A DNA stretch of 64,000 bases from a virus (IMGVR_UViG_3300045988_149468:32001-96000), one strand, 5' to 3'; numbered from the stretch's first letter, positions 4,901 to 29,384 are shown. Translations and numbers: made by a program. Notes: a model not told the origin generated them from the letters alone.

Positions 4901-5920
4901 ATGTTAAGAGAAAACATGACTGATTTACAAAAGACTGCTTTCGACTGTTATAACAATACTGTTATAAAATACTCAGTTGCAGAAGCAGAAGACGTGATAA
5001 GAAAGGCTATAATAAATGAAATAGGTGAACCACCTGCAAGAAAAGAAAAAATGAATAGATGGTTTGAAAAAAATAAAGTTAGATTCTATGAATTATTAGA
5101 AGAAGTTTTAGAACCATTAGTAAATTTACCAAAATTAACTGACTTAGGTGGATATATATTAGTTGAATCTTGTGACTTTGGTGATAAGAAAACTTACAAA
5201 GTTAAAAATAAAGACTTATTTAAAGTTAGTCAAATAGCAACTGGTGTTGGAATGACTGATAGACAAAGATTACATGATAGTAAACTAGACACTAAAATGA
5301 CTAGATTAGGTATCAAAATATATGAAGAAGCATTTGAATTTTTAACTGGTAGAGTTTCTTGGACTGAATTAGTTAATAAAGTAAAAGATTCTTTTGATCA
5401 TACAGTAACAATGATGGTTATACAAACTGTTTTTGATGCTTATGATGTTGTTAATACTAACTTAAAAGCTACTACAAATGCTGATGGTGTTGGTGACAAA
5501 TTAAAACAAATGATAGCTAAAGTTAAAGGTGCTACTGGTGTAGAACCAGTTGTATTAGGTACTAAATCAGCATTAGCAACTATACCTAATTCTGGTGGAA
5601 CTGATTATGTTTTAGATAATGAAGATAGAAGAAATGGTGGTTATGTAAAATTATTTGAAGGTACAAGATGTGTAGAATTAACTCAATATTATGATGTTGA
5701 AAATAATAAATTCCATATACCAGATGATTATCTAATCATAACTGTTCCAGATGCAAACGGTAAATTAGCAGTTGTTACATACGAGGGTGGAGTTACAATA
5801 TTAGATTCTAATGATACATTAGCTAGAAAAGATTATCAATTAGAAATGGAAATGGAAAGATTTGTCCATGTTGGTGTCCCAGTAGCAATGCATTTTGCAA
5901 TGATAAAAATATCTGCATAA
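4901..5920 (+). CDS. major capsid protein
   Basis: 339 aa with a strong SD (AGGAGGA), directly after the scaffold and a small protein. The size matches gpE-type coat proteins. It is followed by a leader motif plus hairpin. The assignment rests on position and size. Confidence 0.6.
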   Translation: MLRENMTDLQKTAFDCYNNTVIKYSVAEAEDVIRKAIINEIGEPPARKEKMNRWFEKNKVRFYELLEEVLEPLVNLPKLTDLGGYILVESCDFGDKKTYKVKNKDLFKVSQIATGVGMTDRQRLHDSKLDTKMTRLGIKIYEEAFEFLTGRVSWTELVNKVKDSFDHTVTMMVIQTVFDAYDVVNTNLKATTNADGVGDKLKQMIAKVKGATGVEPVVLGTKSALATIPNSGGTDYVLDNEDRRNGGYVKLFEGTRCVELTQYYDVENNKFHIPDDYLIITVPDANGKLAVVTYEGGVTILDSNDTLARKDYQLEMEMERFVHVGVPVAMHFAMIKISA

Positions 5921-5994: not shown

Positions 5995-6621
5995 ATGGCA
6001 AGAGTAAGTAAGGCTGATTTAGAAAAGAAAAAAGCAGAAGAACAAACTGAAACACAGACTAAAGAAGTTGTAGAAGAAACAAAACCAAAAACTAAAACAG
6101 TATCAAGAAGACAACAATTTAAAGAAAAGAAAATAGAACTTAGGAAACAAGCTAGTGAGATACAAGTCGAAGTATTAAATATATCCGATGGTAATGCTTA
6201 TTTTGTTAGTAGAAAAACTGGTATACCTTATTTTGATTTAAGTCCTTCTGAAGATACAGTATTAACTTTAGATGAACTTGAAGAAGTAGTAAGAGATGCT
6301 AAAGGTTTTTTCACAAAAGATGTATTAGTTATGACTGATGTTTATAATGAAAAATACAATTTAGTTGATATAATGGAATATTTAAAATTAAAAGATTACG
6401 ATAAAGCTGGATATGATTATCTTGAAGAATTTATAGTTGATAGTTCTGATGCCGAATTTAAATCTAAATTAGAAAATGAATCAAGAGAGTATGTTAAAAG
6501 AATTGCTTGTAAAGCTATATACCTTGATGCAACTGAAGAATATATACTACCTCGTAGTAAAGAAACAATTCTTTGTAATTTATTAGGATTACAATTGCTA
6601 ATAGGTGAAAATGACAGATAG
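5995..6621 (+). CDS. hypothetical head-module protein with K/E-rich N-terminus
   Basis: Strong SD AGGAGGAG; 208 aa; no motif. Confidence 0.5.
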   Translation: MARVSKADLEKKKAEEQTETQTKEVVEETKPKTKTVSRRQQFKEKKIELRKQASEIQVEVLNISDGNAYFVSRKTGIPYFDLSPSEDTVLTLDELEEVVRDAKGFFTKDVLVMTDVYNEKYNLVDIMEYLKLKDYDKAGYDYLEEFIVDSSDAEFKSKLENESREYVKRIACKAIYLDATEEYILPRSKETILCNLLGLQLLIGENDR

Positions 6622-6631
6622 GAGGTGCATT

Positions 6632-7045
6632 ATGGCAACTTCTGTTCAAGATATTTATAAACGATTTTTAGCACAAATAGGCAAAGATGTAATAGCTGAG
6701 TTAGAACAAGAATTAGCTGAAGAACTAATGTTAATTTATTTAGAAGGCGCTATTTCAATGTTTGATATTTGTGAAAAAGACTTAACAATAGAAAATAATG
6801 AGTTTAAAGAAGATTTAACATTAAATGAACAATATATATTAGCTGATGGTATGATTTTATATTGGTTAAAACCAAAAATAAATACTGAAAAAATGATAGA
6901 TTTAATAATTACAACTAGTGATTATAACATTAAATCACCTGCCAATCTATTAGACAAATTAAATACTTTATATAATGATAGTTTTTATAAATTTAGAAAT
7001 AGAATTAATCGTTATTCGTTCAAAGGGAAAAAGGTGAATGGATAA
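6632..7045 (+). CDS. putative head-tail adaptor
   Basis: ATG 6632 lies 6 nt after AGGAGGTG; the track start at 6605 lacks an SD. The stop overlaps the next start (ATAATGA). Function is positional only. Confidence 0.35.
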   Translation: MATSVQDIYKRFLAQIGKDVIAELEQELAEELMLIYLEGAISMFDICEKDLTIENNEFKEDLTLNEQYILADGMILYWLKPKINTEKMIDLIITTSDYNIKSPANLLDKLNTLYNDSFYKFRNRINRYSFKGKKVNG

Positions 7046-7478
7046 TGAGTTATTTTGAAAGATATAAAATTAGAACACAAAGAGCATTAAATTGTAAAGA
7101 ATCTTTGTTAAAAGATGCTGAATATAGATTTCAACAGGTTATGGATGAAGCATTAACCACTCATATTGTTCAATATACTAAAAATGGTGAATTTCCAGAT
7201 TTAAAAAAGAATGGAACTATTAGAGTAAATATAAATGATATTACAAACAATGATAAATCAGCTTATGATGAAAAGAAAATTTTAGTTGATAAAAATGCTG
7301 ACATGGATGTTGGTTCGTACATATGGTTTAATAATTGTTGGTGGATAGCTGTATTTAAAGAACATCAAAGTTTAAATTTATATAAGAAATTGATATTTAA
7401 AGTTTGTAATCAAATAGTGAAATATAAATTAAATGGTACAACATATGATATACCTGTTAATATACACAATATGACGCT
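7045..7478 (+). CDS. neck/tail structural protein, exon 1
   Basis: The ORF runs into a stop at 7513 inside structured, GC-richer RNA. P1 pairing places the 5' splice site after U7478. See the intron feature. Confidence 0.6.
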
Positions 7479-7806
7479 AAACTGTATGGTGTCTTGCTAT
7501 AGAAATATAGCATAGGAAAATTGGGTAAAATCGGTCATATATGTAGTGATACATATGGTAAGAAAGGCTAAATCTATTTTTTATAGACAAGCTAATACCG
7601 AGTTAATTAATTAGATTACGAAAGGCTAATTAACAATGTAGAGCGTAGAAGGTGAATAAATATAATCCTTCCAAGAGTATCCAACATCTTAACGGATAAT
7701 GCTGAAGATGAAAATGTACGCCAAACTGAGTTGGAATTAACCAACTGATGAAAATGAGAGAAATCTCCAGAGCAGTAGATAAAAAGCTACTGGATAATAA
7801 TTATTG
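7479..7806 (+). ncRNA. group I intron, ORF-less (328 nt)
   Basis: P1: exon GACGCU (7473-78) pairs with GGUGUC (7488-93), with U7478.G7488 at the splice site. P10: 3' exon AUAUAG (7807-12) pairs with CUGUAU (7482-87). P2: UGCUAUA-GAAA-UAUAGCA (7495-7512), a GNRA loop. The last base G7806 serves as omega-G. There are further hairpins (GTTGG-AATTA-ACCAAC, CAGTAG-N8-CTACTG). ATG 7820 downstream has no SD. Exons 434 + 535 nt = 969 nt = 323 codons, in frame. Confidence 0.7.
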
Positions 7807-8341
7807 ATATAGTGATGGTATGAATGATGCTAGATATATGTCTTATGGCGATAGTAAATGTAGATTTGTTATAGGTAAAAATCCAATAACTGAAAATATA
7901 AATGTTGGAGCAAGATTCTTAGTAAATCATGATGTACCTTACAGAGTTACAAATAGAGTTGATTACGAATATAACGGATATACAAATGGTAGTGACGGTA
8001 TAATGAACTTTATACTATTACAAGTACCTAGATTGCCAGATGATGATATTGAAGATAATATTGCTTATAATAATTTTGGTAAATATGTTGATGAATTATT
8101 TGTTGGTAATGATATTTGTTACATAGGTGAAGAGAATGAATATATATTTAGAACAAAACAAATGATAAGTTATCAGCTTGAAACTGATACAAAAGAAATA
8201 ACTATATCTGTTGAAAATAATATATGTACGTTGCATTGTAATTATAATATGGATCTAATAGGTAAGACAGTAAGATTAATTGTTAATAATGATGAAGGTA
8301 ATTTTATAATTGATAAACAAATTTTAATTAAGGGGGTGTAG
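7807..8341 (+). CDS. neck/tail structural protein, exon 2
   Basis: The frame is open from 7808. Joining to exon 1 gives ...NIHNMT-L-YSDGMNDARYMSYGDSK... There is no SD before Met 7820. Confidence 0.6.
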
Positions 8342-8345
8342 GATT

Positions 8346-8885
8346 GTGAGCAGTATTATAAAGAATTTTTCAAGTAATTACATGACAAAATTAGCAACAA
8401 TATTCATGTTAGATAAACAAGTTAATAAATTTTTATATTACAACAATATTTTAGATGAAGATATACTTTCACAACCAGATGTTAAAAATCCTATATCAGC
8501 CTTAAATGAAAATAAAGTATTTGTTGATAGAAAGATAGATAAAATCATCAAAGAAGGAGATATTACATTATTTATAAATGTTAAAAGTGATGCTCCTTAT
8601 TCTGATGGTGCTAGAGTTTCTTCTTTATATAACGTATTAACGATTGAAGTTGGTGTTATATGTCATAAATCATGCCGAAAAACAATAAATGGAATACGAG
8701 AATTAGTGGTAACAGATAGAATTAGACAAATCTTAACTAAAACTCCAGAATTACAAGGTATTGGTGATTTAACAATTAAAAGTTGTTCACCAATGTATAG
8801 TATTCCTTATTATGATTATAATGGTTATTCTACACAATTTGAAATAATTTATTGGAAGGATGCTTATAACAATGAAATTTCCTAA
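8346..8885 (+). CDS. hypothetical neck/tail protein
   Basis: GTG start 8 nt after AAGGGGG; 179 aa. Confidence 0.5.
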   Translation: MSSIIKNFSSNYMTKLATIFMLDKQVNKFLYYNNILDEDILSQPDVKNPISALNENKVFVDRKIDKIIKEGDITLFINVKSDAPYSDGARVSSLYNVLTIEVGVICHKSCRKTINGIRELVVTDRIRQILTKTPELQGIGDLTIKSCSPMYSIPYYDYNGYSTQFEIIYWKDAYNNEIS

Positions 8886-9634: not shown

Positions 9635-10153
9635 ATGGCTAAAACAAGTGCAGATTTATATGCAATAAAAAAATGTGTAAATGGTACACTAACTGAAATA
9701 GGTGGAGGTGCAAAATCAATAAAAGTAGATTTTTGTAATACCTTCGATATGGAAACATCTTCAGATAAAATAACAGCTAGAGCTGATGGCGTAGATGTTA
9801 TTACTTGGAATACTTCAATAGAAAGAACATTCACATTAGGTTCTGAATGTATGAGTGATGATGCTTTAGCATTATTAGTAGGTGGTACAATAGATACAGC
9901 AACAAGTAAAATAACTGTTCCTAAAGATGTACCTTCAACTTGTTATTCTTATGAAGGTACATTTACAGTAGTCTATAAAGACGGTACTGTTGGTGTTAAA
10001 ACAATGAAAATACCTAAAGTACAACCAAACGTAGACAATTCATTATCATTATCTTCAGTAGATTTATCTACATTTGAAGTACAATTTAATATATTATCTG
10101 GTGATGAAGATTTTGTATTCACAATAGAACCTAAAACTGCTGAATCAGTATAA
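9635..10153 (+). CDS. major tail protein
   Basis: 172 aa with a strong SD AGGAGGAA. It is the last gene before the chaperone pair and the tape measure, and a strong terminator hairpin follows. No sheath gene is present. The assignment is positional. Confidence 0.55.
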   Translation: MAKTSADLYAIKKCVNGTLTEIGGGAKSIKVDFCNTFDMETSSDKITARADGVDVITWNTSIERTFTLGSECMSDDALALLVGGTIDTATSKITVPKDVPSTCYSYEGTFTVVYKDGTVGVKTMKIPKVQPNVDNSLSLSSVDLSTFEVQFNILSGDEDFVFTIEPKTAESV

Positions 10154-13672: not shown

Positions 13673-14043
13673 AAACAACATTCTGCCTATGTTTATAAAG
13701 AGCATAGCAAACTCATTGAATTGCTGGAAAGCCCTAAAGCTCAAATGCCACAACATAATTGGAAACGATAAGTGTGATGGAACGAAAGTAGAAAAAAGTT
13801 TTGAGATAGTATAAGGTTAAACCCTAAGTACTAAAATAATGGGTAATCAGCCTCCAAGTCTCTATAAAGTGAGAAAGGATAAACGACTATTCCGTGACGG
13901 GAAGTACACATATAAGCTATTGATATGTGGAAGTGGTGAGGTTCTTTTTATTGAAAAAGAATGTGATATAGTCTACTCTTATATGAAAGTATAAGAAGTT
14001 CATAAGAGAACTGTCTAGCGTAGCGAGCTAGATGAATACAAGG
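13673..14043 (+). ncRNA. group I intron TMP-I1 (ORF-less, 371 nt; boundaries inferred)
   Basis: Core elements occur in order: P GAATTGCTGGAAA 13718-30, Q AATCAGCC 13845-52, R AAACGACTATTCC 13881-93, S GATATAGTCT 13965-74. The 3' tail is GTTCATAAGAGAAC 13998-14011 plus hairpin TCTAGC/GCTAGA. It is richer in G+C than the flanks. Confidence 0.75.
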
Positions 14044-14190
14044 ATATTTCAGAAGAGGATTCAGATAAATATTTAAAATCAATAATGTCAGCGTATGGTG
14101 GCGTTGATGAATCATTGGATGCTATGAGTACCAAAGTTAAAGGTGCTGGTGATAATTACAGTAGATTAACTGATTATATGGATCAGGCAG
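14044..14190 (+). CDS. tail tape measure protein, exon 2
   Basis: Open stretch reading (D)ISEEDSDKYLKSIMSAYGGVDESLDAMSTKVKGAGDNYSRLTDYMDQA; no start codon or SD of its own. Confidence 0.6.
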
Positions 14191-14563
14191 ATGTTTGCCT
14201 AGTTGTATAGTAATATGCAACCGAAAACAACTCTAATTGCAGGTAATGGGTAAAGCCTTACACTACAATATGCCAGAAATGAGTATATGATAGTGCGAAA
14301 GCGGAAACAACGTAAGGATTCTCATATGGTTAAATCCTAAGTGGGAAATGATTAAATTCATACAATCCCTGTTCATGCAACCAAGCTCCCCTGTATATAA
14401 CGAGGAGAAGGCTCAACGACTAATTGTACATTACAAGCCAATGGTAATGGAAAAGGGTTGCTCCTATTTATATAGGATGAAGAAATAGTCTAATCTTATG
14501 TGAAAGCATAAGCAGTTTGTAAGAGAACGGCATAAATCTTGCGAATTTATGTGAATATGAAAG
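14191..14563 (+). ncRNA. group I intron TMP-I2 (ORF-less, 373 nt; boundaries inferred)
   Basis: P TAATTGCAGGTAA 14234-46, Q-like GTTCATGCAACC 14371-82, R CTCAACGACTAAT 14412-24, S AAATAGTCT 14483-91, tail GTTTGTAAGAGAAC 14515-28 plus hairpin CATAAAT/ATTTATG. It is closest to I4. Confidence 0.7.
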
Positions 14564-14577
14564 AAACTATGCAGGTG
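14564..14577 (+). CDS. tail tape measure protein, micro-exon 3 (14 nt; alternatively 13 nt, 14564-14576)
   Basis: This is the only segment between I2 and I3 whose length keeps exons 2 and 4 in frame: (E)TMQV in the 14-nt solution, (A)NYAG in the 13-nt solution. Confidence 0.4.
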
Positions 14578-14922
14578 AAAGTTTAATCGCCTAGTAATAC
14601 AAGTGATTGTATTATTTTACTTTTTGAATTGCTGGAAACTCCTTAGAGTCTTAAATACTACAACATAATCTGAAAAGATAAGTGTGAAAGTTTAAAAAAT
14701 TTAAGAATTGGAAAATCAGCAGGTAAGATTCTAAGTTGATTATAAAATCAATATGAATAAACTTCAACGACTATTCCTGGCAAGGAAGTACATTCAAGCG
14801 AATGGAAGTGGAAAGCTCTTATAATAATTATAAGATAAAGATATAGTCTAGTATCCTATTGAAAAATAGGGAAGTTCATAAGAGAACTGATTAGGAAGTA
14901 GCGAACCTAATTGAATATAACG
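14578..14922 (+). ncRNA. group I intron TMP-I3 (ORF-less, 345 nt; boundaries inferred)
   Basis: P GAATTGCTGGAAA 14626-38, Q AATCAGCAGG 14714-23, R TTCAACGACTATTCC 14763-77, S GATATAGTCT 14840-49, tail GTTCATAAGAGAAC 14874-87 plus hairpin ATTAGG/CCTAAT. It is closest to I1. Confidence 0.7.
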
Positions 14923-15411
14923 AATAATTTTGCTGTTACATCAGCCGACATAGGTGAAGCATTAATGAGAAGTGCTTCAGCTTTTAAATCTAATGGTATG
15001 GATATAAATGAAGGTATAGGATTAATTGTAGGTGCTCAAGAAACGGTTCAAAATGCGGGTAAAGTAGGAAATAGTTTTAAAACAATGATAAATCGTCTTA
15101 ATGGGGTTACTTACTCTATGAAAGAAGGAGATGTTATTGCTAACAAAACTGCACAAGCATTTGAAAAATTAGCAGGTATCAAAATAGTAGATTGGGATAC
15201 TAACAAAGTAAAAGATGCTTATACTATCTTTAGTCAATTAGCAGATAAATGGGATGATATGAACGATGTTCAAAAAAATGGTATAGCAGACGCATTAGGT
15301 GGTGCTCACCATTTGAACACATTACAAGCTTTAATGAACAACTGGGACACTGTCGTACAATATCAACAAGAATATAACGATGGATTCATGGTTGGATCAG
15401 CTGAAAAAGAG
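14923..15411 (+). CDS. tail tape measure protein, exon 4
   Basis: NNFAVTSADIGEALMRSASAFKSNGMDINEGIGLIVGAQETVQNAGKVGNSFKTMINRL... is the typical TMP core. The track ORF 14911-15447 extends into intron sequence on both sides. Confidence 0.65.
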
Positions 15412-15647
15412 AAACAACATTCTCCGTATGTACAGAAATGTGCATAGGACACAACTTGAATTGCAGGTACAACCTAAGAGCCTTACACCACAATATTGGA
15501 GAAATCACAATATGAAGGTACGAAAGTAGAAACAACGTAAGGATAGATATAAGGTTAAATCCTAAGTATCTAAATGTAATTAAAGTAATTATTACATTAC
15601 AATGGTAGTTCATGCAGAGAAATTCCTAAATTTAATTTATAAAATCA

Positions 15648-15676
15648 TTGACAATATTTACCATTGGTGTTATTAT
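15648..15676 (+). promoter_or_regulatory. sigma-70-type promoter inside intron I4
   Basis: TTGACA (15648-53), 17 bp, TATTAT (15671-76), 11 bp, AATTAATAAGGAGG (15688-), then ATG 15710. Confidence 0.5.
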
Positions 15677-15709
15677 TTAAATATAATAATTAATAAGGAG
15701 GTGATTATT

Positions 15710-16861
15710 ATGGCAAAAAAATATAATGAAAAAGATATTATTGAAATTTTAGAAAAAAATAATGTGATATTATTATCAAATTATAAAAATAGCACAACAG
15801 AATTAAAAATGATTTGTAGCTGTGGAAAGCATTTTAGTAAATCGTTTAAAATAATGAAACGAAGTGGAAATTTTAAATGTAATGATTGTATAAAAAAAGA
15901 ACAAGTAAAAAAACAAACTATGCCTTATGAAATTGCAAAACAGAGAGTTGAAAACTTAGGATATAAATTGTTAACAACCAAAGAAGAATATATTAAAGCT
16001 AGTGAAAAAAACAAATTACAATGTCCAAATGGGCATATATATGAACAAATATTATTAGATTTATTTAAAGGACACAGATGTAAAAAATGTGCATCTAAAA
16101 TAAACGGAGATAAATCTAAATTTAAATACGAAGATGTTAAAAAGGTTATAACTGATTTAGGATTTGAATTATTATCAGCAGAATATGTAAATAATGATAC
16201 TCCTTTAAAAGTTAAATGTAAAAAATGTAATCATATATTTTCCCCAACTTTACATAATTTAAAAAACGGAACTGGCTGTCCAAATTGTTATTCAAAAATT
16301 AGGGGTAAATCTACAATCATACCATACGAGGATAGAGTAAATTATGTTGAAAATTTTAATTATAAAATCTTAACACCAAAAGAAGAATATATTAATGGTG
16401 AAAATAAGGTGAAATTAAAATGTTCAAAAGGACATATTTATGAAGCTAGATTGCATGATTTTTACATTGGAAATAGATGTCCGCATTGTAAGGAATCTAA
16501 AGGTGAAAGAAAAATTGAAAGATTTTTAAAAGAAAATGACATTAGATTTGAAAAACAATACATTATAAAAAGATGTAAATTTAAAAGATATTTACCTTTT
16601 GATTTTTATTTACCTGATTATAACCTTCTTATAGAATATGATGGGAAGCAACATTTTGAAATAAGTGATTATTTTGGGGGTTATGAAAGTTTCATAGATA
16701 CCAAGATAAGAGATACAATTAAAAACATTTATTGTCAAAATAATAACATAGATTTATTGAGAATCTCTTATTGGGATTATAAAAATATTGAGAATATATT
16801 GGCTGATAAATTAAAATTAAACAAGGAAAACTTTCAACGACTAGAGTTGAGATACTCGTAG
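15710..16861 (+). CDS. intron-encoded homing endonuclease: tandem zinc-ribbon modules plus C-terminal Vsr/PD-(D/E)XK-like nuclease domain
   Basis: ATG 15710 follows AAGGAGG. There are four repeats of CxxGH...GxxCPxC-type ribbons (CSCGKH..CNDC, CPNGH..CKKC, CKKCNH..CPNC, CSKGH..CPHC). The C-terminus FDFYLPDYNLLIEYDGKQHFE...RD matches Vsr/DUF559-like and EDxHD-type nucleases. The last codons overlap intron element R. Confidence 0.75.
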   Translation: MAKKYNEKDIIEILEKNNVILLSNYKNSTTELKMICSCGKHFSKSFKIMKRSGNFKCNDCIKKEQVKKQTMPYEIAKQRVENLGYKLLTTKEEYIKASEKNKLQCPNGHIYEQILLDLFKGHRCKKCASKINGDKSKFKYEDVKKVITDLGFELLSAEYVNNDTPLKVKCKKCNHIFSPTLHNLKNGTGCPNCYSKIRGKSTIIPYEDRVNYVENFNYKILTPKEEYINGENKVKLKCSKGHIYEARLHDFYIGNRCPHCKESKGERKIERFLKENDIRFEKQYIIKRCKFKRYLPFDFYLPDYNLLIEYDGKQHFEISDYFGGYESFIDTKIRDTIKNIYCQNNNIDLLRISYWDYKNIENILADKLKLNKENFQRLELRYS

Positions 16862-17000
16862 GATATAAGCGATTGATATCCGAAGTGGGTTGCCCCTAAC
16901 GTAAAGACGAGGGTGAAGAAATAGTCTGCTCATCTATAGAAATATAGAGAAGTTCATAAGAGAACTGCATAGGTATAGCGAATCTATGTGAACAAAAAGG

Positions 17001-27890: not shown

Positions 27891-29384
27891 ATGGCATTAT
27901 TAAATAATTCCCCTGCGAATGGATATATATACTTTGAAAATCCATGTATACAATACAATGGAACAATCTATACAATCAATTCAATGTATACAAATAAACC
28001 ATATATTTATTTTGATATATCTGATCCTAAAATATTAAAAGACTTTGATTATAGACAACCTGATGAAAATTTAATACTAGTTGTAAAAAATAATGATGGT
28101 TTTGCTATGATTTTAGAAGGTAACACAGCTTTAGAACTAACTTTTGACGGAATTAATGCAAAAACATTAGCTAATAAACTAAATTCAGTTAATAAAAACT
28201 CACAAGAATATAAAAATGAATTAAGTGAAATTAATGATAGCGTTAATTCTCTATCTGATGATTTAGTTAAGACTAATACGTTCAATGAGATTAAAGAAAC
28301 ATTTAATACATCAACAATACAGCTAAATAATAAATTGGTAAGTTTAACTGTATTAGTTAAAAATAGTGTATCGGATAATTTGTTAACTACTTCTGAAAAA
28401 GGAAATATAAATTATGAATATGGTTTATTTGAACAACGAATATTAGAAGTCCTATCTCAATCAAATTCATTAATAGCTTTATATAGTACTTCTTCTAGTA
28501 ATATAGATGAAAATGTTATATCTTCTGTAGAAAATAATGAATCTGAATTAACTGGATTGGTTGCCGAACTAAACATTCAAATGAACGAATTAGTTAATCT
28601 TCAAACAGAAGCTGTAACTTCTGCTGATATAGTTGATATAACTAGTAACTTAACAACTATAAGTTCATCATTGGTATCATTAAAAGATAATTGTAATAAT
28701 TTAATATATCTTGGTGCAGGAAATACTATTGTAGACACAACAAATAATATTTCTTTTAGATTGGACACTTTAGACAACATTGTATCTGAATTAAAAGAAA
28801 GTGTTACTTCTGGATTTGAAGAGGAAAAGAAAAATATCCAAAATATAATAAACAATGATATAAATATATGTAACAAATTAGGAAATTTATTATATCAAAT
28901 AGTTTCAAGTGATGGAAATCAAATGACGCAATCTCAGAAATCATCTATAGGAACATATTGTAATGGATTAGAAAATAATTTGAATAAATTAAAAGGTATA
29001 TATGAAGTTTATTATGAAAACGAAGCATTAGACAGCACGTTAAAAAAACAATTTAAAGAAAGTATGGACGATTTTATAAAAATACAAACTACAATGACAG
29101 ATGATTTAAAAGAAAGTATTAGTGATTTAATTCTTACATCTAAAGAATATAGAAGATATTTTGCTTATTTAGAATTGTTTAGAAGTGCAAGGAGTGATTT
29201 ATCTAGTAAATTTATGTCAGTTATAAACTTAGTTATTAATTCACAAGGTTCAGATAGTATAGATGCTATTAATACAAAGATACAAAATATAAATGACAGT
29301 ATAGCAAGTATAACACAAGAAATAAATACTATAAAAAATAAATGTGATGATTTTGATAAAAGATTAAAAGCATTAGAAGGATAG
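27891..29384 (+). CDS. coiled-coil baseplate/fibre structural protein
   Basis: 497 aa, SD AAAGGAGGTG, long low-complexity helical regions. Structural by context. Confidence 0.5.
   Translation: MALLNNSPANGYIYFENPCIQYNGTIYTINSMYTNKPYIYFDISDPKILKDFDYRQPDENLILVVKNNDGFAMILEGNTALELTFDGINAKTLANKLNSVNKNSQEYKNELSEINDSVNSLSDDLVKTNTFNEIKETFNTSTIQLNNKLVSLTVLVKNSVSDNLLTTSEKGNINYEYGLFEQRILEVLSQSNSLIALYSTSSSNIDENVISSVENNESELTGLVAELNIQMNELVNLQTEAVTSADIVDITSNLTTISSSLVSLKDNCNNLIYLGAGNTIVDTTNNISFRLDTLDNIVSELKESVTSGFEEEKKNIQNIINNDINICNKLGNLLYQIVSSDGNQMTQSQKSSIGTYCNGLENNLNKLKGIYEVYYENEALDSTLKKQFKESMDDFIKIQTTMTDDLKESISDLILTSKEYRRYFAYLELFRSARSDLSSKFMSVINLVINSQGSDSIDAINTKIQNINDSIASITQEINTIKNKCDDFDKRLKALEG

Follow-up and report, generated by a model that had tools for sequence, protein, structure and literature searches.

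In a 64,000-nt stretch of viral DNA (IMGVR_UViG_3300045988_149468:32001-96000, the whole of which is called the window here), the 328-nt segment at positions 7479–7806 is very probably a self-splicing group I intron, devoid of an open reading frame (ORF), that interrupts one 322-codon gene of the virion module. [quoted passage not shown] All features described below lie on the plus strand and are numbered from the window's first letter.

Intron boundaries and the interrupted gene

Two ORFs can be called around the segment. The first, 7045–7515, reaches its stop codon 37 nt inside the 328 nt, and the segment has a G+C content of 0.30–0.35, against 0.22–0.26 in the flanks, in agreement with the earlier description of an ORF ending within a G+C-richer stretch of about 330 nt. 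The segment folds somewhat better than its shuffles (minimum free energy z-score of -2.6), and the ORF list contains no frame of homing-endonuclease size within 7479–7806. The second ORF, 7820–8341, begins at an internal methionine of the fused frame. Its predicted lack of a Shine-Dalgarno (SD) sequence, unlike nearly every other gene of the window, was confirmed with a caveat: anti-SD pairing at ATG 7820 amounts to -5.4 kcal/mol, where most of the neighbours reach -10 to -14, yet the starts called mechanically at 6605 and 8860 are equally weak. The GTG at 6605 has almost no SD at all; because the homologous genes of six related loci (L111–L116) are called at 137 aa, the true start of the 6605–7045 ORF probably lies downstream, near 6632.

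Joining 7478 to 7807 yields 969 nt, or 322 codons plus stop, reading ...NIHNMTLYSDGMNDARYMSY..., so that the in-frame fusion, put at 323 codons in the original prediction, is recovered. Exon 1 (7045..7478) comprises codons 1–144 plus 2 nt, and exon 2 (7807..8341) supplies the remaining base of codon 145 and continues for another 177 codons to the stop; both limits are supported by protein alignment, and the fused protein reads ...NMTLYSDGMNDAR... across the exon junction.

The contig L110, source of protein P0001, carries an intron-less allele of this gene, 98.6% identical in DNA sequence over exon 1 (L110 342–775) and 97% over exon 2 (L110 776–1310), which lacks exactly 7479–7806 (...ATGACGCT|GTACTCAGATGGG...). 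The comparison sets the intron boundaries to within one ambiguous A, which is resolved by the group I rule that U precedes the 5′ splice site and G is the last intron base. Accordingly, the 5′ splice site falls at U7478, the final base of the P1 exon strand GACGCU (7473–7478), and the 3′ splice site at the omega G, G7806, where blastn matches to the introns of other phages end exactly; the introns at the same site in other loci and the terL introns that were worked out likewise end in G. At L110 1150–1152 (window 8180), the allele has TAA where the window has GAA, which cuts its called protein to 269 aa; coverage of L110 is ~3x, and the TAA may be a sequencing error or the mark of a decaying copy.

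A homology search with the fused product, proposed alongside the original prediction, returned uninterrupted homologues that match across the junction and not the separate ORFs. The fused protein aligns over its full length with phiCD211 gp10 (329 aa, uninterrupted; 35% identity, E 2e-63), and the junction NMTL|YSDGM is gap-free, NMTLYSDGMND in the window facing NLTLYSDGMAD in gp10. Four uninterrupted metagenomic homologues from a large protein collection (321–324 aa, 46–70% identity) also align across the junction, and the fragments returned by the same search are exon-1 or exon-2 ORFs that enter or leave the intron at the same place. Residues 1–318 match positions 1–329 of 333 in the profile of PHROG 10703 (E 5.5e-57), an end-to-end match to a family of unknown function.

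The gene is flanked on one side by a gene for a YonB-like protein (4901–5920) and on the other by a YomW-like gene (8346–8885) and a tail-tube gene (9635–10153), identities that were taken from Pfam notes on syntenic contigs. This position makes it a member of the head-to-tail gene module of a low-GC, phiCD211/SPbeta-like phage, and the synteny suggests a conserved virion-module gene. Megablast with 20 kb of sequence revealed no close relative among the GenBank phages. Sequence searches of Pfam, NCBIfam, and the PDB with the host protein gave no match, and the AlphaFold model of P0002, an uninterrupted homologue, has a pLDDT of 41, too poor for a fold search. With these searches empty, the model poor, and the PHROG family without known function, the ‘neck/tail’ of the original prediction stays a positional guess; the splitting of the gene stands.

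An intron also occupies the same codon in L111–L113, which are 95% identical overall, and in L114–L116, which are ~80% identical. Some alleles carry the intron and others lack it, at 97–99% exon identity, which points to a recent gain or loss. Between the window and L110, 6 of the 27 exon differences fall within the 13 nt on the 3′ side of the insertion site (7807–7819; post-hoc hypergeometric P ~4e-5), and the final 59 nt of exon 1 contain none. All six clustered differences are synonymous, including a switch between the serine codons AGT and TCA, and positions 7807–7819 of the window are identical to those of L114, the intron-containing, 80%-related locus. The cluster on the 3′ side fits either co-conversion of the exon as the intron was transferred or selection and adaptation for P10. 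Homing with co-conversion is documented, as is the ‘collaborative homing’ in which a free-standing endonuclease mobilises an ORF-less intron (PMC3984707). The intron studied here has probably spread by recombination or with the help of endonucleases supplied in trans.

Fold, covariation and comparison with classical phage introns

The secondary structure was derived by hand from a three-way comparison and then counted on an alignment, A1, of the window intron and 17 diverse relatives. At its 5′ end, the internal guide sequence (7482..7493) contacts both exons. Its 3′ half and the last bases of exon 1 form P1 (7473–78 GACGCU with 7488–93 GGUGUC), 6 bp that include the U7478.G7488 wobble at the splice site, and its 5′ half pairs with the start of exon 2 to form P10 (7482–87 CUGUAU with 7807–12 AUAUAG), 6 bp beginning right after G7806. 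Both helices had been predicted in this form, and both covary among the same-site introns. L111 keeps the guide GGUGUC, its P10 (GUAG/CUAC) fits its altered exon 2 start, and its intron ends in ...AAAAG; L114 combines the exon sequence GACACU with the guide GGUGUC, which turns a G.U pair of P1 into A-U, and its P10 is CUAUAU/AUAUAG. Helices P2, P3, P4a, P9, and P9.2 also differ among the same-site alleles through compensating changes.

P2, which the original prediction had placed at 7495–7512 as 7 bp with a GAAA tetraloop, is built by 7495–7501 and 7506–7512 around the loop 7502–7505, and 7/7 of its pairs show changes on both sides in A1. P3 (7521–27 UUGGGUA with 7678–84 UAUCCAA) is 100% paired, with compensatory changes in 6 of 7 pairs, and closes the P3/P7 pseudoknot. 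Directly after its 5′ strand come the AAA of J3/4 (7528–7530) and P4 (7531–35/7597–7601, UCGGU/ACCGA), which is invariant across the family and therefore carries no covariation evidence. Between P4 and P5, beside J4/5, an unusual 20-nt hairpin is inserted (P4a, 7538–7557), with a stem (7538–45/7550–57) that covaries and a GUGA loop that is GNRA in the relatives as well; it is present only in the same-site introns and in L042 and L072. P5 (7566–69/7590–93) shows partial covariation and is followed by P5a (7573–77/7583–87); P6 (7602–04/7635–37) and P6a (7607–14/7626–33) are 95% paired, with 10 of 11 pairs compensatory.

P7 consists of G7641, the bulged A7642, and 7643–47 GCGUA, paired with 7717–22 UACGCC (100% paired, 4 of 6 compensatory). 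In this geometry, the outer pair G7641-C7722 (G-C or A-U in the family) and the pair G7643-C7721 enclose the bulge, and the inner helix varies freely as GCGUA/UACGC, GCAUA/UAUGC, GAGUA/UACUC, GCGCA/UGCGC, GCACA/UGUGC, and GACUA/UAGUC, the last being canonical. From its place beside the bulge, as in other group I introns, G7643-C7721 is predicted to be the guanosine-binding pair. P7.1 (7648–52/7667–71) is 100% paired, with 4 of 5 pairs compensatory, and encloses a conserved 14-nt loop that holds an extra hairpin in some relatives; on its 3′ side lies a conserved CAAGAG (7672–77). P8 (7685–90/7705–10) is 91% paired, 5 of 6 pairs being compensatory, with all its pairs standard in the alignment to the covariance model R1 described below, and is followed by the AAAAUG of J8/7 (7711–16). 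The 3′ domain holds P9 (7729–34/7741–46), P9.1 (7756–59/7764–67, GAAA loop), and P9.2 (7773–78/7787–92), each of them 100% paired and covarying. The classical P, Q, R, and S elements are recognisable in A1 as AAAAUCGGU, AAUACCGAG, GUAGAGCGUAG, and GAAAAUGUACGCC, for which the consensus sequences are AAUUGCGGG, AAUCCGCAGC, UCAACGACUA, and AAGAUAUAGUC. A first set of hand-guessed helices, in which GCGUA/UACGC served as P3 or P4, UAUCC/GGAUA as P8, and UUGG/CCAA as P3, was discarded, as the relatives disagree with it.

Counted on the same 18 sequences from which the fold had been derived, 95.0% of cells are standard pairs, compared with 34–43% when the 3′ partners are slid by 1–3 columns; both sides have changed in 53 of the 80 pairs of A1, and none of the 500 shuffles reached any of these measures. 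The covariance model R1, which spans P7 through P9.2, was built from the 17 relatives with the window left out. It matches the window at 7638–7794 with 172 bits (E ~1e-42) and every pair standard, and nowhere else in the window; it also matches the introns of the relatives at 64–171 bits, and gives no match on the intron-less loci L002 and L110. By this leave-one-out model and by blastn (best E 2e-48, to an intron in another phage), the resemblance is far beyond what would be expected by chance. The segment contains the group I core, with its P3–P8 and P4–P6 domains and a covarying P3/P7 pseudoknot, as well as a P1 with the U.G wobble and an omega G with P10.

P7.1 and P9.1/P9.2, the helices by which subgroup IA (IA2-like) is told, are present and covary; they place the intron in the phage IA type as read from its predicted helices, with IA1, IA2, and IA3 not distinguished. 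The classical phage IA2 introns, such as those of T4 td, nrdB, and sunY, Twort orf142, and the SPO1 DNA polymerase gene, have an architecture established in the classification of Michel and Westhof (1990) and reviewed in PMC3984707. The window intron has in common with them the topology of the group I core, the U.G pair at the 5′ splice site, the terminal G, a P7.1/P7.2 hairpin between P7 and P3′, P9.1/P9.2, the P, Q, R, and S elements, and, here as a prediction, the mechanism. It differs from them in P7, GCGUA/UACGC instead of GACUA/UAGUC, and in P4, UCGGU/ACCGA instead of GCGGG/CCGC.

There is precedent for small group I introns without an ORF in the virion genes of phages. [quoted passage not shown] That intron, of 265 nt, resembles the one in the window in lacking an ORF, in residing in a virion gene, in having been found via uninterrupted homologues, and in the U that closes exon 1 and the G that closes the intron; it differs in its high-GC actinophage host, its unrelated gene, and its experimentally proven splicing, which is inferred for the window intron. 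The latter is, accordingly, a genuine but ordinary element.

Relatives in other phages and the blind spot of RF00028

The cmsearch with RF00028 that had been suggested as a check was negative, alone among the structural and model-based measures of group I membership applied here. The model gave no match at 7479–7806 when the whole window was searched at gathering (50 bits), and none when a 601-nt slice was searched under permissive filters with E<=10 as the limit; no Rfam family matched the slice containing the intron. RF00028 found no member of this intron family in the loci of twelve relatives either, so the negative result reflects a limit in the sensitivity of the model. In its consensus-structure line, both P7 strands are drawn as unpaired, and compensatory changes in P7 therefore cost score on both sides. 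The Rfam group I model has been noted as incomplete for phage introns (PMC11878797).

Introns of the classical RF00028 type occur in the tape-measure region of the same window (14174–14512 and 14567–14871), whereas 7479–7806 lies below every reportable RF00028 threshold. No blastn similarity links 7479–7806 to the window's own IA2-type introns, and R1 passes them over, which agrees with the earlier statement that this intron and those of the tape-measure gene belong to different sequence families. The tape-measure region (13883–16918) contains four R/S pairs (ACGACTA ... GAWATAGTC), at 13883/13965, 14416/14482, 14767/14840, and 16837/16918; set against two RF00028 introns at gathering, they suggest that two more tape-measure introns may be under-called.

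By blastn, positions 7577–7806 match DNA within the split genes of unrelated phages at 70–82% identity, in alignments of up to 230 nt. The matches include Clostridium perfringens phage vB_CpeS-1181 (MW478292), in which two terL coding sequences flank an ORF, and Bacillus phage AR9/PBS1, in which the topoisomerase II coding sequence is annotated as three joined pieces; further matches come from Staphylococcus, Yersinia, crAss-like, and Leptolyngbya phages, where an HNH or LAGLIDADG gene is often adjacent. A 28-nt motif of the 3′ domain, GATGAAAATGANNGNAANNTCCAGAGCA, has exact matches in at least 106 stretches of IMG/VR viral contigs. The P9-P9.1-P9.2 domain (7729–7792) contains invariant GAUGAAAAUGA, CCAGAGCA, and GAUAAA across loci L004–L109 and is conserved more strongly than any other part of the family, the strands of the catalytic core included, in phages of very different hosts.

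The terL introns (vB_CpeS-1181, L007, and L066), the AR9 topoisomerase intron, and the unannotated element in the phiCD211 tape-measure gene have the same P3–P9.2 helices, with covariation, and share with the window intron the conserved CCAAGAG and the P9–P9.2 module; they differ from it in host gene and insertion site. In the terL introns the guide pairs with its own exon, as GGGGU/GCUCU in L007 and CAGGGU/GCCCUG in L066, so the guide-exon rule holds across different host genes, and splicing there would restore the Walker A motif GQGKTW. Relative to these terL and topoisomerase introns, P4a is an extra hairpin of the window intron. The AR9 intron combines the P9–P9.2 domain with a different P4–P6 half.

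The relatives also differ in their ORFs. L007 and L066 introns carry a LAGLIDADG ORF, located between the 5′ splice site and the guide and hence in the P1 loop, L1 (L007 2930–4240, L066 3320–4340), while the intron of vB_CpeS-1181 (L001) has its ORF in the P5 region, and the window intron has none. ORFs thus occupy different loops within one ribozyme lineage.

In phiCD211 (NC_029048.2), the tape-measure gene is annotated as two coding sequences and one Intron_gpI misc_RNA (28891–29156). R1 detects an unannotated family member just upstream, at 28691–28856 (L117 2450–2615; 63.6 bits, E 7e-15), which implies that this gene holds tandem introns; a literature search for a group I intron in phiCD211 found nothing. 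In L030, a family member at 197–365 (R1, 103.6 bits) lies ~140 nt upstream of an RF00028 intron at 505–725 (105 bits), and the two appear to be another tandem pair, of introns from two different lineages.

Database matches to this lineage come from Clostridium, Clostridioides, Staphylococcus, Bacillus jumbo, Yersinia jumbo, crAss-like, and cyanobacterial phages, and its traits are a nearly invariant P9-P9.1-P9.2 domain of ~100 nt together with a freely covarying P7. We tentatively raise the possibility that the window intron is part of a large IA-like lineage, carried by phages and so far without a formal description.

Proposed splicing pathway and alternative readings

Splicing and catalytic activity of 7479–7806 are predicted from these features, and the pathway would follow that of other group I introns. 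With the guide paired to the end of exon 1 in P1, a free guanosine bound in P7, at the G7643-C7721 pair beside the bulged A7642, would attack the bond after U7478. The 5′ half of the guide would hold exon 2 through P10 as G7806 enters the guanosine site, and the 3′-OH of U7478 would then attack after G7806, ligating ...ACGCU to AUAUAG.... The spliced mRNA would direct synthesis of the full-length protein, ...NMTL-YSDGM.... An unspliced transcript would yield only a truncated product of 156 aa, and the second half would have a weak predicted ribosome-binding site.

It is improbable that the segment is what remains of a group I intron that has decayed and can no longer splice, in a gene that is inactivated or expressed as two polypeptides. 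Such a relic would be compatible with an intron without a homing endonuclease, whose splicing is read from its sequence, and with ATG 7820, which could in principle restart translation. The unusual insertion of P4a is also in its favour: the J4/5 region normally contacts the P1 wobble pair, and a hairpin beside it could impair folding. Yet P4a is conserved in the diverged same-site alleles, where it covaries and keeps GNRA loops. All core helices are intact, the window intron shares all 87 of the 87 invariant columns of the family alignment, and its alignment to R1 contains standard pairs only, all of which speaks against decay. On the side of the gene, exon 1 of P0005 (L111, at 95% DNA identity) has zero amino-acid differences from exon 1 of the window, the SD of ATG 7820 is only weak (-5.4 kcal/mol), and synteny suggests a conserved virion-module gene.

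That nothing is removed, and that two separate genes are parted by a structured non-coding spacer, such as a small RNA or a regulatory element, is scarcely credible. Two ORFs can indeed be called and RF00028 is silent, but the homologues are single proteins continuous across the junction, and the intron-less allele of L110 lacks exactly the spacer, which is itself homologous to sequence within split terL and topoisomerase genes; in a scan of 6900–8500, promoter-like sites were not in excess and terminators were absent.

Other forms of removal or skipping, raised only in view of the failure of RF00028 and with nothing specific in their favour, have an equally negligible chance: a group II intron would need more than 328 nt, and the Rfam families are all silent; the gap is not bordered by a matched pair of take-off and landing codons, as read from the sequence, and is six times as long as that of T4 gene 60, against bypassing of that type; the boundaries are without the terminal inverted repeats or target duplication of a DNA insertion such as a MITE or other transposon; and the P3/P7 pseudoknot, the U.G pair, and the omega G are specific to group I.

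On the reading as a self-splicing group I intron, two ‘hypothetical’ ORFs of 156 and 173 aa are really one virion-module gene of 322 aa. The finding leaves the understanding of group I intron mechanism unchanged. Its near-identical alleles with and without the intron, together with the diverged same-site variants, constitute a small natural system for the gain, loss, and co-conversion of an ORF-less intron. Reliance on the RF00028-negative result would have wrongly dismissed a real intron. The blind spot extends to a whole lineage, found in more than 100 viral contigs and in published phage genomes; its missed members would be recovered with a covariance model built for the purpose, as R1 was. 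If this lineage is indeed large and distinct, the intron content of phages would be systematically under-called, including in the well-studied phiCD211, with its unannotated copy in the tape-measure gene.
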